Assembly: GCA_029262065.1 (NCBI GenBank)
Contig: JAJDAC010000041.1
Coordinates: 1,430 to 65,429 of the forward strand
Direction of reading: 5' to 3'
DNA: 64,000 nucleotides
Source: Candidatus Krumholzibacteriota bacterium
Lineage (GTDB): Bacteria; Krumholzibacteriota; Krumholzibacteriia; JAJRXK01
Both the position numbers and the translations under genes were made by a program. Below, in pieces: positions 20,114 through 48,059 of this stretch. The stretch's first letter is position 1, and each line of letters starts with the position of its first letter. The notes under the pieces were generated by a model. It saw only the letters and a list, made by a program, of their open reading frames with translations. It was not told the origin of the DNA and searched no databases.

Positions 20114-21136
20114 CTACCAGTACAAGGACCGGTGCTCCTTGTAGAACTCCACCGTCTTGGCCAGACCCTCTTCCATGGTGGTCAGAGGCTTCCAACCGGT
20201 GGCCTTGGTGAATTTGGTGAAATCGGCCACGTAGTCGCCGGTTTCGATGACCTTGCGCTCTTCGGGCCAGGGAACCAGCTCGTACGAGCCGCTCCCGGCG
20301 TACTCGATGACCATTTCGGTGGCTTCGCGCAGGGTGCGCGGAACGCCGCTGCCCAGATTGAACGCCTCGCCGTCGCACGCATCTGGTCTCGAACCAGCAC
20401 GAAGAAAGGCGTCGGTGGCGTCATCCACGTAGTTGTAATCGCGCTTCTGACCACCATCGCCATATAGCTTGATGCTGCCACCGTCCATGGCCAGGCGAAT
20501 GAACCAATTCAGGATTCCGTATTTGGCGTGGCGCATCTGATGGCGCGGACCATAGCAGTTGTTGACCCGTAGACTCGTGAACTTCATGCCGTACGCGCGG
20601 TGATACACCAAGCCGTAGCCTTCGGCCGCGACCTTGTTCACGCCGTAGATGTCGGTGGGCTGCATGCGGTGTGTCTCATCCACGGGAATGGTGTCGAGCA
20701 CGCCGTATTGGCCGCGCGTGCCGGCGTACACTACATGGCAGTCGAGGTTGTTGTGACGCACTGCTTCGTATACGACCATGTTGCCACGACAGTTCACGTC
20801 GATGTCCCAGAATGGCTCGGTCATGGAATCCACGTGGCTTGTCTGCATGCCAATGTGGAACAGTACGTCCTTGCCCTGCACCAGGTGGTTCATGGCGTCC
20901 GCATCGCGGATGTCACACACGTTCACGTTGACGTCGTCGCGCACGGATTCCAGGTTGTTGTAGTTGGCGCCGAACAGAGGGTGGCAACTGTCGATCACCG
21001 TCACGTTGGCCCCCAGATGCACCAAATCGATGGCAACATGGCTGCCCAAGCACCCAAGTCCACCGGTAATGAGCACGTTCTTGCCCCGGTAGAAACCGGC
21101 GTAGTCGTTCTGGTTCGTGGTCAATGGAATCCCCAC
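20114..21136 (-). CDS. NAD-dependent nucleotide-sugar epimerase/dehydratase
   Basis: TGGLGCLG, YGVNK (YxxxK), NCYGP, GDGGQKRDYNYVDD. Confidence 0.92.
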   Translation of the reverse strand: MGIPLTTNQNDYAGFYRGKNVLITGGLGCLGSHVAIDLVHLGANVTVIDSCHPLFGANYNNLESVRDDVNVNVCDIRDADAMNHLVQGKDVLFHIGMQTSHVDSMTEPFWDIDVNCRGNMVVYEAVRHNNLDCHVVYAGTRGQYGVLDTIPVDETHRMQPTDIYGVNKVAAEGYGLVYHRAYGMKFTSLRVNNCYGPRHQMRHAKYGILNWFIRLAMDGGSIKLYGDGGQKRDYNYVDDATDAFLRAGSRPDACDGEAFNLGSGVPRTLREATEMVIEYAGSGSYELVPWPEERKVIETGDYVADFTKFTKATGWKPLTTMEEGLAKTVEFYKEHRSLYW

Positions 21137-21182
21137 CGCGTGTGACGCAACCTTGAGCGAGGGCGTAGTCTACACCAAAGCG

Positions 21183-21740
21183 TCAGGGCTTACAGCAGGG
21201 ACAGTCCTTGGCGTGGGTCCGGGGCCGGTAGTCCAGCACGTTGCCGCTGCCATCGCGCTCCAGTTCGCAACATTCCAACAGCATGGAGCGGAGTTGGTGC
21301 CGTCCTCGTTGCACACGGGACTTCAGGCCCGATGGCGAGAGACCCAGCTCCGCCGCCAATTCGCTCTGCTTTCGCCCCTGCAGATCGGCCAGCCGCACGG
21401 CCTGCGCCTGATCGGAGGGCATCTCGTTCAGGAAACCCTCAAACCAACCCCCCACCACCTCGTTCAGATTGCTCGCCGATTCGGGCTGGGCGACCGGCTC
21501 GTCTTGCAGCGGTGTCGTTGGCCGGGCGGCTTCGCGTCGCCCGTGATCGATCCAGACGTTGCGCGCGATCTGGAACACCCAGGCCGCCACGCGATCTTCG
21601 TCGCGCAGGCGGCCCAGGCCCTGATGGATGCGTAGGAACGTCTCCTGCGTGAGGTCGTCGGCCGTGGTCGAGTCGGTCCGGGTTCGGAACCACGCATGGA
21701 TCCGAGCCTGGAACTCGTGCCACAGGCGCTCGCTGGTCAC
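21183..21740 (-). CDS. sigZ: ECF RNA polymerase sigma factor, SigZ-like
   Basis: DDLTQETFLRIH, AWVFQIARN, KSRVQRGR..LR..L.ECC, C-terminal CPCC; GTG 21740 follows the arsI stop. Confidence 0.82.
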   Translation of the reverse strand: MTSERLWHEFQARIHAWFRTRTDSTTADDLTQETFLRIHQGLGRLRDEDRVAAWVFQIARNVWIDHGRREAARPTTPLQDEPVAQPESASNLNEVVGGWFEGFLNEMPSDQAQAVRLADLQGRKQSELAAELGLSPSGLKSRVQRGRHQLRSMLLECCELERDGSGNVLDYRPRTHAKDCPCCKP

Positions 21741-21744
21741 GCCT

Positions 21745-22182
21745 TTACCCGCAGCAACCGGGCGCGTCGCCACATGCCGTATCGGCCACGACGGGGTCGG
21801 ACAGGATGGTGTAGATCTCCCACTCGTGTCCGTCGGGGTCGGTGACCCAGGCCTTGTCCTGCTTCGAATAGCAGCAGTCCGTGCCCAGCTCGAGTCTTGG
21901 CTCCAGGCCGCGTGACTTCAACCGATCGATAGCGGCGGCCACCTGGTCGGCATCGGCCAGTTGGACGCCCATATGATGCACCGCGCTGCGTGCCAGCGGA
22001 GCATCGGTGACATTCAACGACAGCTGAAGGGGTGGGTTGGCCACCACGAAACGTGCGTAGTCGTGGTGCACCGGATCGGGCGCCTGATCGAACAGGGCGC
22101 GGTAGAAGTCCATGCTGGCGTCCAGATCATTCGTGGCCAGGGCCAGATGCACGCGGGCCGTGGAAGCAAAGGTCGTAGTCAT
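21745..22182 (-). CDS. arsI: ArsI/CadI family VOC metalloenzyme (C-As lyase-like)
   Basis: RVHLAL, HHMGVQ, TDCCYSKQDKAWVTDPDGHEWEIY, C-terminal CC; ATG 22182 after AGGAGG. Confidence 0.82.
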   Translation of the reverse strand: MTTTFASTARVHLALATNDLDASMDFYRALFDQAPDPVHHDYARFVVANPPLQLSLNVTDAPLARSAVHHMGVQLADADQVAAAIDRLKSRGLEPRLELGTDCCYSKQDKAWVTDPDGHEWEIYTILSDPVVADTACGDAPGCCG

Positions 22183-45327: not shown

Positions 45328-45606
45328 GGGGGTTCCTTTCGGCGAACTATCTTCGGGGTGGCTTCTGGCTGGCGCAGGGCCGGGTTCGCAATCAAGCTAG
45401 CCTGGCGCGGGAAGACCATCAAGCCCAGTCGACCACGAGGCTATGGTATACTCTCCAGACCTCGCACCTACAGCGGGTTTTGCCCATCCCCTACCTAATC
45501 CATGACCATTCTGTTTCTGCCCCATCGCCTCTCATCAAACCGCCGTTCGGCCCCGGACCGGTGCTGGTTGCCATGCCCAACATCGGGCCCAGTATTGAAC
45601 CCAGCG

Positions 45607-46731
45607 TTGAAATTGTTTCTGGGCCTGGTATTGGTCTCGTCGTGGACAAACGTCGGCGCGGAAGCGGCCGACGTGGCGTTCGATCTGGAGACCGTGGACA
45701 GCACGGACCGCGTGGGTGAGTACCTGTGGATGGCGATCGACGCCAACGCCAAGGTCCATCTGAGCTACTACGACCGGACCGCCGGTAATCTGAAATACGC
45801 GGAACAGAACGGCGATAGTTGGGACATCAAAGTCGTCGACGGCGAAACGCCCGGCGACGACGTGGGCGGCTACACCTACATGACGTTCGATGACATGGGG
45901 CAGCCCCACATAACGTACTTCGACTGGGCCGGTGCACTGAAGCACGCGTGGCGCGTGGGTACGGTGTGGCAGAACGAGCCGGTGGACCCGGGTCCCGGCG
46001 TCGGCCGCTACAGCAACCTCATGTTCGACAGCGCCGGCACCATGCACGTGGTGTACTTCGACGAAGGCCAGGACGATCTGAAGTACGCTTTCCACAACGG
46101 CACCATATGGGTGCTCGACACCATCGACTCGGTGGGCCAGGTCGGGATAAAGGCGCGCGCGGTAATCGACGCCCAGGACCGCATCCACGCGGCGTATTAC
46201 GACCAGACCAACGGCGCACTGAAGTACGCGTTGCTCGACGGAAACTGGACCGTGACCACCCCCGACGATGGCACCGGCGACGATGTCGGCTCCTACGCAT
46301 CGATCGCCCTGGACTCGGCCGGGTGGCCGCACATCAGCTACTGGAACGCGACCAAGGGCGACCTCGAATACGCCCGATTCGACGGAGCCAACTGGGCCGG
46401 CGAGCCCGCCGAAGAGAACGCCGCCATCCAGACCGGTCTGTTTACCTCTCTACAGCTCGACTCGCAGGACCACGCATCTATCGCATACTTCGATCTGACC
46501 AACGGCGACCTGCGACTGGCCCGCAAGACGAGTAGCCAATGGGACCGCCAGACCGTGGACGCTCCGTTCGCGGTGGGCCGCCACGCGGCGTTGCTGGTGG
46601 TCAATAATTCGGTGTTTCACGTTGCGTATTGGAACGAAACTCGCGAATCTCTGCGGTACGGCATGGGCATGACCCCGGTGGCCACCACCCGCACGAGCTT
46701 CGGTGAGTTTCGTGCCCGCTTCGCTCCCTGA
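45607..46731 (+). CDS. Secreted beta-propeller-like repeat protein with short C-terminal sorting-like motif
   Basis: About seven repeats of VG.Y.S.A.D....HISY.D...LKYA; tail TPVATTRTSFGEFRARFAP; start uncertain (TTG 45607; ORF from 45502). Confidence 0.72.
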   Translation: MKLFLGLVLVSSWTNVGAEAADVAFDLETVDSTDRVGEYLWMAIDANAKVHLSYYDRTAGNLKYAEQNGDSWDIKVVDGETPGDDVGGYTYMTFDDMGQPHITYFDWAGALKHAWRVGTVWQNEPVDPGPGVGRYSNLMFDSAGTMHVVYFDEGQDDLKYAFHNGTIWVLDTIDSVGQVGIKARAVIDAQDRIHAAYYDQTNGALKYALLDGNWTVTTPDDGTGDDVGSYASIALDSAGWPHISYWNATKGDLEYARFDGANWAGEPAEENAAIQTGLFTSLQLDSQDHASIAYFDLTNGDLRLARKTSSQWDRQTVDAPFAVGRHAALLVVNNSVFHVAYWNETRESLRYGMGMTPVATTRTSFGEFRARFAP

Positions 46732-46766
46732 TCAAATTCACCCGTTTTGTCCCAGGGAGCCAATCC

Positions 46767-47318
46767 GTGGCCTGGATCCGGCAGATTGACGAGGACGACG
46801 CCGAAGGCGAAGTCAAACGCCTGTACGACGCATTGCTGGTGCCCGAATCGGGCAAGGTCGACCACATCCTGAAGATCCACGGACTCCACCCCGCCGGATT
46901 GCGCGGACACCTCGCTCTCTACCGGGCGGTCATGACGGGAAGCGACACGCTGCCCAAGGCCGAACGGGAGCTGGTGGCCTACACGGTCAGCCGCATCAAC
47001 GAGTGCCACTACTGAACGAATCACCATCGACGCGGTCTGCGTCGCGAATTGCAGAACGACACCGAAATGGCCTTCCTGGAAGCCAATCTGTTCTCGCCCG
47101 AAATCGGCGCCAAGCGGGCGGCCATGGTCGAGTACGCTCGCAAGCTGACGGTTGAACCCGCCAAGATGACCAAAGTCGACGTGGATCGTCTGCGTGAAGT
47201 AGGATTCAGCGATCGCGATATCCTGGAGATCGCCGAGGTCGCCTCGTATTTCGCGTTCGTCAATCGCCTGGCCGACGGCTTGGGCGTACAACTGGAGTCC
47301 TGGTTCTCCGAAGACTGA
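46767..47318 (+). CDS. AhpD/carboxymuconolactone-decarboxylase-like peroxidase, selenoprotein (CxxU, UGA 47013-47015)
   Basis: ORFs 46767-47015 and 47049-47318 are in one frame separated only by a TGA in NECHY*TNHH; the halves form one AhpD-like protein (ERELVAYTVSRIN..., YARKLT..P, AFVNRLADGLGV). Confidence 0.88.
47013..47044 (+). promoter_or_regulatory. Bacterial SECIS-like element
   Basis: 12 nt after UGA, stem CGACGC/GCGTCG with GGTCT loop, resembling the fdhF-type apical loop. Confidence 0.8.
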
Positions 47319-47336: not shown

Positions 47337-48059
47337 ATGCTTTGGTTCGTACTGGCCATCCCCGTGGTGTTGGCATTGGCGTCGGCCTGGCGCTCACCGC
47401 GAGGGCCGCGCCCGCTACGCGAGACACCATCGCAGTGGAAGAACCTGCACACGCGACGCAACTTTCTGCGGCTGGGCTTCGGAGTGGTGGGATCCACCGC
47501 GTTGGTATACTCCGGAGTCGATGAGAGCGTGGAGGCGTGGCACGCTGCCGAGGTGAAGAACGAAGCCACCGACGCCGCTTCGCACTGGCTGCATGAAGGT
47601 GGCGAGCGCTTCTGGTTCGCGTATTGGCTGGCCTTCGCCGTCATTGACGGGTCGGTGGGAAGCAGCGGGCTGACGCGATTCGGTCGGCGGTGCTTTCAGT
47701 CGATGCTTGTGGGACTGCCCATGCTGTGGATCACGCAGCGCGTATTAGGCGGCAGCCGCCCGCAAGAAGAACCACACGGCCCCGACTATCGCCCCCTGGC
47801 CGACGACAACGCGGCCTCGGGACATTCGTTCATCTCTTCCGTTCCGTGCTTCGTGGCCGCGCGAACCGTGGAATCCAAGGCCGGGTCGACCGCCGCCTAT
47901 GCGCTCGCGCCCTGGGTAGGTTGGTCGCGGCTGAATGATCGCAAGCACTACCCGTCGCAGATCCTGTTGGGTTGGTTGATCGGGTATATGGCCGCCGAAG
48001 GCGCGGTGCTTGGTGAGCCGGGCACGAAGGTGCCGGCGAAAGCAGGTGATTCAACGTGA
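47337..48059 (+). CDS. PAP2 family phosphatase
   Basis: RP, SGHS, SRLNDRKHYPSQ motifs. Confidence 0.78.
   Translation: MLWFVLAIPVVLALASAWRSPRGPRPLRETPSQWKNLHTRRNFLRLGFGVVGSTALVYSGVDESVEAWHAAEVKNEATDAASHWLHEGGERFWFAYWLAFAVIDGSVGSSGLTRFGRRCFQSMLVGLPMLWITQRVLGGSRPQEEPHGPDYRPLADDNAASGHSFISSVPCFVAARTVESKAGSTAAYALAPWVGWSRLNDRKHYPSQILLGWLIGYMAAEGAVLGEPGTKVPAKAGDST

Follow-up and report, generated by a model that had tools for sequence, protein, structure and literature searches.

An in-frame UGA in an AhpD-like gene of a Krumholzibacteriota bacterium as a predicted selenocysteine codon

In the stretch of DNA analysed here (64,000 nucleotides of a Candidatus Krumholzibacteriota bacterium contig; hereafter the window), a reading frame related to AhpD is interrupted by a TGA codon. 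Is this TGA a lesion, a stop or a selenocysteine (Sec) codon? The original prediction, made from the sequence alone, took the TGA for a Sec codon and described a hidden selenoprotein, an AhpD-like peroxidase with a C-x-x-U motif and a SECIS hairpin. Our analysis points the same way. With a probability of about 0.93, 46767-47318 is a genuinely Sec-decoded gene with a functional SECIS, its product being an AhpD-like thiol/selenol oxidoreductase of 183 residues in the CMD superfamily (TIGR01926/COG2128).

The interrupted gene and its predicted product

In a table-11 listing of open reading frames the gene appears as two, 46767..47015 (82 aa) and 47049..47318 (89 aa, TTG start). When the TGA at codon 83 (47013-47015) is translated as U, the frame stays open until the terminal TGA (47316-47318) and the product has 183 residues. 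The sequence and coordinates given in the original prediction are thereby confirmed, together with its remark that ORF callers split the gene. The GTG start at 46767 is supported by orthologues that open with M-[A/S/P]-W-I at the same alignment column. The features of the locus are collected in Table 1.

Table 1 Features of the AhpD-like locus (coordinates of the window).
Feature	Position	Strand	Remarks and basis
AhpD-like gene, predicted selenoprotein	46767..47318	+	183 codons plus terminal TGA; translation with TGA as U, profiles, structure model
Shine-Dalgarno-like AGGGAG	46754..46759	+	7 nt before the GTG start; read from the sequence
GAG, Glu68	46968..46970	+	12 residues before C80; invariant in 61/61 orthologues; proposed proton-relay Glu of the AhpD core motif
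Redox motif C80-H81-Y82-U83 (TGC CAC TAC TGA)	47004..47015	+	TGC of C80 at 47004-47006; read from the sequence and the orthologue alignment
CAC CAT, His86-His87	47022..47027	+	both invariant in 61/61 orthologues
SECIS-like hairpin CGACGC/GCGUCG, loop GGUCU	47028..47044	+	arms 47028-47033 and 47039-47044, loop 47034-47038; inverted repeat, folding, orthologue comparison
PAP2-family protein	47337..48059	+	18 nt past the stop of the gene; PF01569, E 2.1e-10; context only

The same codon cuts the calls for public protein homologues, of which 38 matched, four of them at full length. Among the 17 that were aligned, 11 are C-terminal fragments whose first codon directly follows the TGA and two are N-terminal fragments ending in C-R-Y; two full-length proteins carry W at the site (P0003 and P0004) and two carry Cys.

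The read-through product is a full-length member of the NCBIfam family TIGR01926 ("peroxidase-related enzyme"), with 127.8 bits against a cut-off of 81.8 and residues 2-175 aligned on positions 1-174 of the 178 in the profile. It also matches the Pfam CMD domain PF02627 (E 5.9e-13) and the CMD-superfamily core domain TIGR00778 (33.2 bits; cut-off 27.8). Its score for canonical AhpD of the M. tuberculosis type, TIGR00777, is 19.1 bits against a cut-off of 191.95, and judged by this profile the product is not a canonical AhpD equivalog.

A phmmer search of the PDB returned 3C1L at E 5.3e-27. In the two alignments shown, the C-x-Y-C of 3C1L and of 2PFX is aligned to the C-H-Y-U of the read-through product. 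The TGA thus falls on the second Cys of the AhpD C-x-x-C, where the original prediction had placed it, in alignments with solved AhpD-like proteins and with Cys-form homologues alike. An AlphaFold2 model computed from 24 aligned sequences (mean pLDDT 92.1, pTM 0.88) is all-helical with nine helices, and C80 directly precedes helix 81-95. Foldseek places the model close to 3C1L, 6K40, 2PRR, 2OYO and 2PFX (TM 0.84-0.88), indicating the all-alpha AhpD/CMD fold.

The catalytic signature of AhpD is spaced E-x11-C-x-x-C-x3-H. E68, C80, U83 and H87 reproduce this core motif with Sec in the place of the second Cys. Residues E68, C80, Y82, H86 and H87 are invariant in all 61 unique orthologues, and 59 of the 61 have Sec or Cys at position 83. 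H87, four residues after U83, would by homology occupy the position of the catalytic His. The AhpD-like character of the predicted protein is therefore well supported by profile and fold, whereas "peroxidase" is a label taken from homology, as is peroxiredoxin-reductase activity.

Conservation of the UGA codon and the selenocysteine machinery

Three independent lines identify the TGA as a probable Sec codon: its conservation, the Sec machinery of the genome and the use of TGA as an ordinary stop. A search of 61 related genomes found 26 protein matches, the one in the window included. The aligned codon is TGA in 20 of the 26 (19 of 25 without the window); the other six have Cys (TGC or TGT) in four cases, GGA (Gly) in one and GCA (Ala) in one. 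One weak TGA match among the 26, L042, is without the Cys at -3. A species-wide scan with one genome per species yielded 49 loci at 38-53% protein identity, from Gemmatimonadota, Acidobacteriota, Chloroflexota, KSB1, Marinimicrobia, Calditrichota and other MAGs. TGA stands at the codon in 48 of them, and the scan was not biased towards TGA, since its search patterns were back-translated with Cys. In these alignments the TGA coincides with the redox-active Cys of homologues, and its conservation at this position is far beyond chance.

The single TGC among the 49 loci (L090) is in a MAG labelled archaeal (Thermoplasmatota); it may be a real archaeal homologue or a product of mis-binning. The Gly and Ala codons belong to two otherwise intact orthologues, L024 (G055:C1:2296267-2296803; GGA) and L028 (G043:C3:388-927; GCA). 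A hairpin remnant is still present at the same offset in both, and selB is above its cut-off in both genomes. They may be 1-Cys variants, or genes in decay.

A nonsense mutation, or a sequencing or assembly error, in an ordinary Cys-type AhpD-like gene would need one TGC-to-TGA change only, and Cys forms of the family exist. Such an accident would not be expected to recur at one codon, yet 19 of the 25 other matches have TGA there, as do 48 of the 49 loci at only 38-53% protein identity. Nor would it leave the downstream frame intact and the catalytic residues invariant, or come with a hairpin and a codon constraint that are specific to UGA forms (see below). We regard the chance of a lesion as close to nil; conservation has in effect refuted it already. 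The original prediction had named relatives with TGC and no conserved hairpin as one finding that would speak against a Sec codon. The relatives keep both TGA and hairpin.

The original prediction implied selA, selB, selC and selD elsewhere in the genome, a lack of tRNA-Sec or SelB being the other finding that would have counted against it, and all four are there. In the source genome (5.77 Mb, 59 contigs, 95.6% complete), selB scores 354.1 bits (cut-off 242.25) over positions 2-577 of the 581 in the profile, selA 467.8 bits (cut-off 268) and selD 336.2 bits, above its cut-off and with one in-frame TGA. The gene for tRNA-Sec (selC) scores 71.6 bits, also above cut-off, with anticodon TCA.

SelD appears to be a selenoprotein itself (...SAAG-U-AAKLSP; locus L010, G000 contig C48:88900-89832, minus strand), and a small hairpin, UCCGGG-CGA-CUUGGA, follows its in-frame TGA. 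A second CMD-family gene (locus L040, G000 contig C15:51420-51806, minus strand) has an in-frame TGA in C-R-F-U, and its protein is 29% identical to the AhpD-like protein of the window. The UGA of L040 is followed by CGCCGC-GGUC-GCGGCG, a 6-bp stem at a similar offset and of the same hairpin design as in the window. The gene content thus indicates a Sec-competent genome with at least three predicted selenoprotein genes, namely selD, the AhpD-like gene and the CMD paralogue.

Among relatives of the same class, selB exceeds the curated cut-off in 59 of 61, and Sec use seems to be near-universal in the lineage. With selB so widespread (59/61), co-occurrence of the UGA form and selB across these relatives is uninformative. 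One genome, G007 (94% complete), has three UGA-type homologues and no selB was found in it.

The UGA might also be decoded as another amino acid, through a reassigned code (Trp or Gly) or through near-cognate read-through (Cys or Trp). Points in this direction are the W in P0003 and P0004 and the Gly and Ala codons of the two orthologues. The Trp in the two full-length database proteins looks like pipeline translation under the Trp-reading code 4. In the window, TGA ends the AhpD-like gene, its upstream neighbour and 22 of the 51 long frames. Since TGA works as an ordinary stop in the same window, the code is not reassigned. Moreover, no tRNA other than tRNA-Sec was found with anticodon TCA, and the position is a redox-active Cys in homologues. 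We consider decoding as another amino acid highly improbable, and Sec remains the preferred assignment of codon 83.

No family support across the TGA was obtained for any of the 12 other CxxU or UxxC read-through candidates tested in the window. An S9/alpha-beta hydrolase and an ECF sigma factor were rejected as read-through candidates, both being normal genes that end at TGA. The latter, an ECF-type sigma factor (20916-21917, minus strand; Sigma70_r2 and r4_2), has a Cys-rich C-terminal tail, CC...C-P-C-C-K-P, directly before its TGA; it was flagged in the CxxU scan and gave no support for read-through.

The hairpin downstream of the UGA

The hairpin described in the original prediction, CGACGC-GGTCT-GCGTCG starting 12 nt after the UGA, is present as quoted. 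It consists of a 6-bp stem and a loop that holds G23 and U24 (counted from the U of the UGA), which we take, following the E. coli literature, to be the SelB contacts. It agrees with the bSECIS consensus and its numeric limits in being a suitably spaced stem-loop just 3' of the UGA that has a G in its small apical loop. The hairpin alone has a free energy of -8.6 kcal/mol and is the minimum free energy (MFE) structure of nt 10-40; the CGACGC/GCGTCG stem is the MFE structure of the local region nt 10-39 (-9.1 kcal/mol).

By itself the hairpin does not stand out statistically. Folding of the 60 nt downstream of the UGA is no more stable than that of shuffled sequences (z -0.51; 57 of 200 shuffles reach the same stability), and the MFE structure of this 60-nt region does not use the CGACGC/GCGTCG stem. 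Compared with synonymous recodings of the same peptide, the window hairpin has a z of -0.25 and 39% of recodings are equally stable, because R-R-G-L-R-R in CGN codons alone gives four of the six pairs. The UGA forms have a mean z of -0.21 against recodings, with 3 of 62 at or below 0.05; for the local region the mean is -0.35, and 4 of 57 reach 0.05 or less. Since GC-rich Arg and Gly codons fold readily, these stability tests do not discriminate, and MFE against dinucleotide shuffles or synonymous recodings was dropped as a test for a SECIS. Rfam gave 0 matches for the whole window at the gathering threshold and two unrelated, chance-level matches for 46950-47120 at E up to 10; the hairpin was not assigned to a SECIS covariance model in either search.

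Support for the hairpin comes from the comparison of orthologues and from E. coli fdhF, not from stability alone. In a pairing test on 57 unique UGA orthologues, the commonest register pairs nt 14-19 with nt 25-30. In this register 88.3% of stem cells are paired, against 30-54% in slid controls. Column-wise covariation scored in the fixed register is not above shuffles (0.130 vs 0.134), and fixed columns under-count compensation because divergent members change register. The arms vary widely among UGA forms, for example ACGGAG/CUCCGU, GGAAAAG/CUUUUCC, GCGGUC/GGCCGC and the CGACGC/GCGUCG of the window. In the loop, G is retained at nt 22-23 and nt 24 is mostly U. The stem of the window sits 2 nt downstream of the commonest orthologue register, a shift that results from the R-R...R-R codons around its loop.

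Codon choice after the UGA is constrained as well. Relative to a background taken from the rest of the same genes, the UGA forms use GGR for Gly at +5 (46/51; background 0.45), GCG for Ala at +6 (39/40; 0.41), GGT for Gly at +7 (32/48; 0.15), CTY for Leu at +8 (53/57; 0.48) and CGT for Arg at +9 (37/51; 0.11).

For a control with Cys forms we used a metagenome scan with a pattern biased to Cys, which gave 80 loci (71 Cys and 9 TGA), and compared 65 unique UGA forms with 66 unique Cys forms. The preferred codons are frequent in the former and much rarer in the latter: GCG at +6 in 40/41 and 8/30, GGT at +7 in 36/54 and 10/53, CTY at +8 in 60/65 and 19/54, and CGT at +9 in 37/52 and 4/27, respectively. 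The synonymous-codon constraint is strong in UGA forms and absent from Cys forms. A hairpin with nt 23 in a small apical loop, a criterion chosen after the data had been seen, is present in 64/65 UGA forms and 9/66 Cys forms. Mean local MFE is -9.4 kcal/mol for UGA forms and -5.0 kcal/mol for Cys forms, which are different subclades with regional GC of 0.64 and 0.59. As the sequences are not phylogenetically independent, p-values of the UGA-versus-Cys comparison overstate the difference.

The two forms also differ in the encoded protein. The +5 residue is Gly in 51 of 57 unique UGA forms (56 of 65 with the metagenome UGA forms included), and 35 of 64 Cys forms have Phe there. Judging from the aligned sequences, this amino-acid difference seems to be dictated by the SECIS stem.

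We conclude from these comparisons that the hairpin at 47028-47044 is the probable SECIS, a register variant that keeps G23 and U24 in place. The original prediction of a SECIS is borne out by relatives that keep a hairpin at the same place and by a spacing like that of fdhF, its stability on its own being unremarkable.

These results also bear on whether the UGA mostly terminates translation, leaving an 82-residue N-terminal fragment and maybe a separately initiated C-terminal piece, with Sec insertion absent or negligible. In every bacterium Sec insertion has to compete with release factor 2, and the window hairpin is in an atypical register and no more stable than its synonymous controls. 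Against termination, the Sec machinery is complete and selD itself requires UGA decoding. The last 100 residues are conserved in frame without need of a start codon or ribosome-binding site, and they contain the active-site His-His downstream of the UGA. In addition, G23 and U24 are placed as in fdhF. We therefore judge predominant termination very unlikely, and favour decoding of the UGA as Sec.

Proposed mechanism and comparison with known systems

We infer a course for Sec insertion, SelB binding and enzymatic activity with a substrate or partner. Following the E. coli paradigm, the mRNA hairpin at 47028-47044 would present its GGUCU loop 12 nt after the UGA. SelB-GTP carrying Sec-tRNA(Sec) would bind this loop, in which G23 and U24 are spaced as in E. 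coli fdhF, and would deliver Sec to the ribosome when the UGA is in the A site, placing Sec at codon 83. SelA would make the Sec-tRNA(Sec) out of Ser-tRNA(Sec), with selenophosphate supplied by SelD. The expected nucleophile of the protein is U83, in a motif predicted at the N-terminus of helix 81-95. C80 would be the resolving partner and form a selenenylsulfide with U83. E68 and H87 may serve as proton relay, the role of Glu68 being one that we presume from M. tuberculosis AhpD. The enzyme would either reduce a peroxide directly or re-reduce a peroxiredoxin-type partner.

The gene neighbourhood yields no candidate for such a partner: among 57 orthologous loci and the neighbours in the window, no conserved redox-partner gene was found beside the gene. 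An NlpC/P60-like gene (assigned by eye from the sequence) is upstream in 20 of the 57 loci and a GroEL-like gene downstream in 9. The PAP2, MatE and 409-aa neighbours in the window are not shared with the orthologous loci, so the adjacent PAP2-type gene is not a conserved neighbour. The 409-aa protein is encoded upstream (45502-46731, plus strand); it has a hydrophobic N-terminus and about seven Y-[YF]-D...G-x-L-K-Y-A-like repeats, and no Pfam match at E up to 0.001.

A different substrate class is conceivable. The UGA subclade, with H-H-G-A-G-L-R after the Sec, an almost fixed Sec and a protein reshaped by the SECIS, may do chemistry that Cys does not serve, on substrates other than those of an AhpD peroxidase or reductase. 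The points behind this reading are Gly in place of Phe at +5, an apparent swap to palindromic Arg codons in the window lineage that moved the stem by 2 nt with G23 and U24 unmoved, and the two SelB-positive relatives in which Sec has changed to Gly or Ala with a hairpin remnant kept. The fold also resembles that of the Cys-dependent debrominase Bmp8 (TM 0.77-0.80). We think it unlikely that the subclade has such a substrate. An AhpD-like thiol/selenol oxidoreductase remains our preferred description of the product.

The value of the assignment lies mainly in correct annotation, and the current understanding of selenoproteins is unchanged. Standard gene callers halve this gene and dozens of its public homologues, or read the UGA as Trp, and with such mis-annotation the active-site residue and the whole enzyme are lost from functional inventories. 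The UGA-versus-Cys comparison also shows cleanly how an RNA signal can impose its own choice of codons, and even of amino acids, on a protein-coding sequence.

Among known proteins, M. tuberculosis AhpD (AhpC reductase and alkylhydroperoxidase) shares with the predicted product the CMD core domain and the motif spacing E-x11-C-x-x-C-x3-H. The window protein differs in scoring far below the TIGR00777 cut-off and in having no adjacent ahpC-like gene. Also comparable are the Cys-type proteins Mlr4105 (3C1L), DR1765 (6K40), 2PFX, 2OYO and 2PRR, with about 30% identity, the same all-helical fold and E...C-x-Y-C...H. These have Cys at the second position, where Sec is predicted for the window protein, and no SECIS. 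The functional data are those for Cys homologues only. As summarized in a review (PMC8945050, citing Zhao et al. 2020), a D. radiodurans mutant without DR1765 is sensitive to H2O2, and complementation needs the cysteines of the CxxC.

The hairpin can be compared with that of E. coli fdhF (formate dehydrogenase H; UGA at codon 140; sequence taken from NC_000913.3). Counted from the U of the UGA, the apical loop of fdhF (GGUC) occupies nt 22-25, and GGUCUG stands at nt 22-27 in the window. A Gly-Leu pair (GGU CUG) encodes the loop in each case, and a short GC-rich upper stem starts about 11-14 nt past the UGA. The stem of fdhF is longer, in two parts and with a bulged U17, whereas the window has a plain 6-bp stem and a 5-nt loop with no evident lower helix.

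The closest known system is the AhpD-like CxxU selenoprotein family. Zhang, Fomenko and Gladyshev (2005; PMC1088965) list AhpD-like CxxU selenoproteins (COG2128) with 27 sequences from the Sargasso Sea. A table of the GOS survey (PMC2398784) ranks "AhpD-like 1, COG2128, CxxU" fourth among its families in abundance (299 Sec and 902 Cys sequences), and a table of a 2026 review (PMC13188914) has the entry "AhpD-like protein, TIGR01926, CxxU". The original prediction was right that such selenoproteins are known; in calling this one hidden it overstated the case, as the family is catalogued and abundant. The gene shares with this family the profile, the C-x-x-U, a bacterial SECIS directly 3' of the UGA and widespread Cys homologues. 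It differs in having R-R...R-R codons at the loop where the common form has G-A...R, and in nothing essential. The gene is a plain member of a selenoprotein family catalogued since 2005, and is already known in kind.
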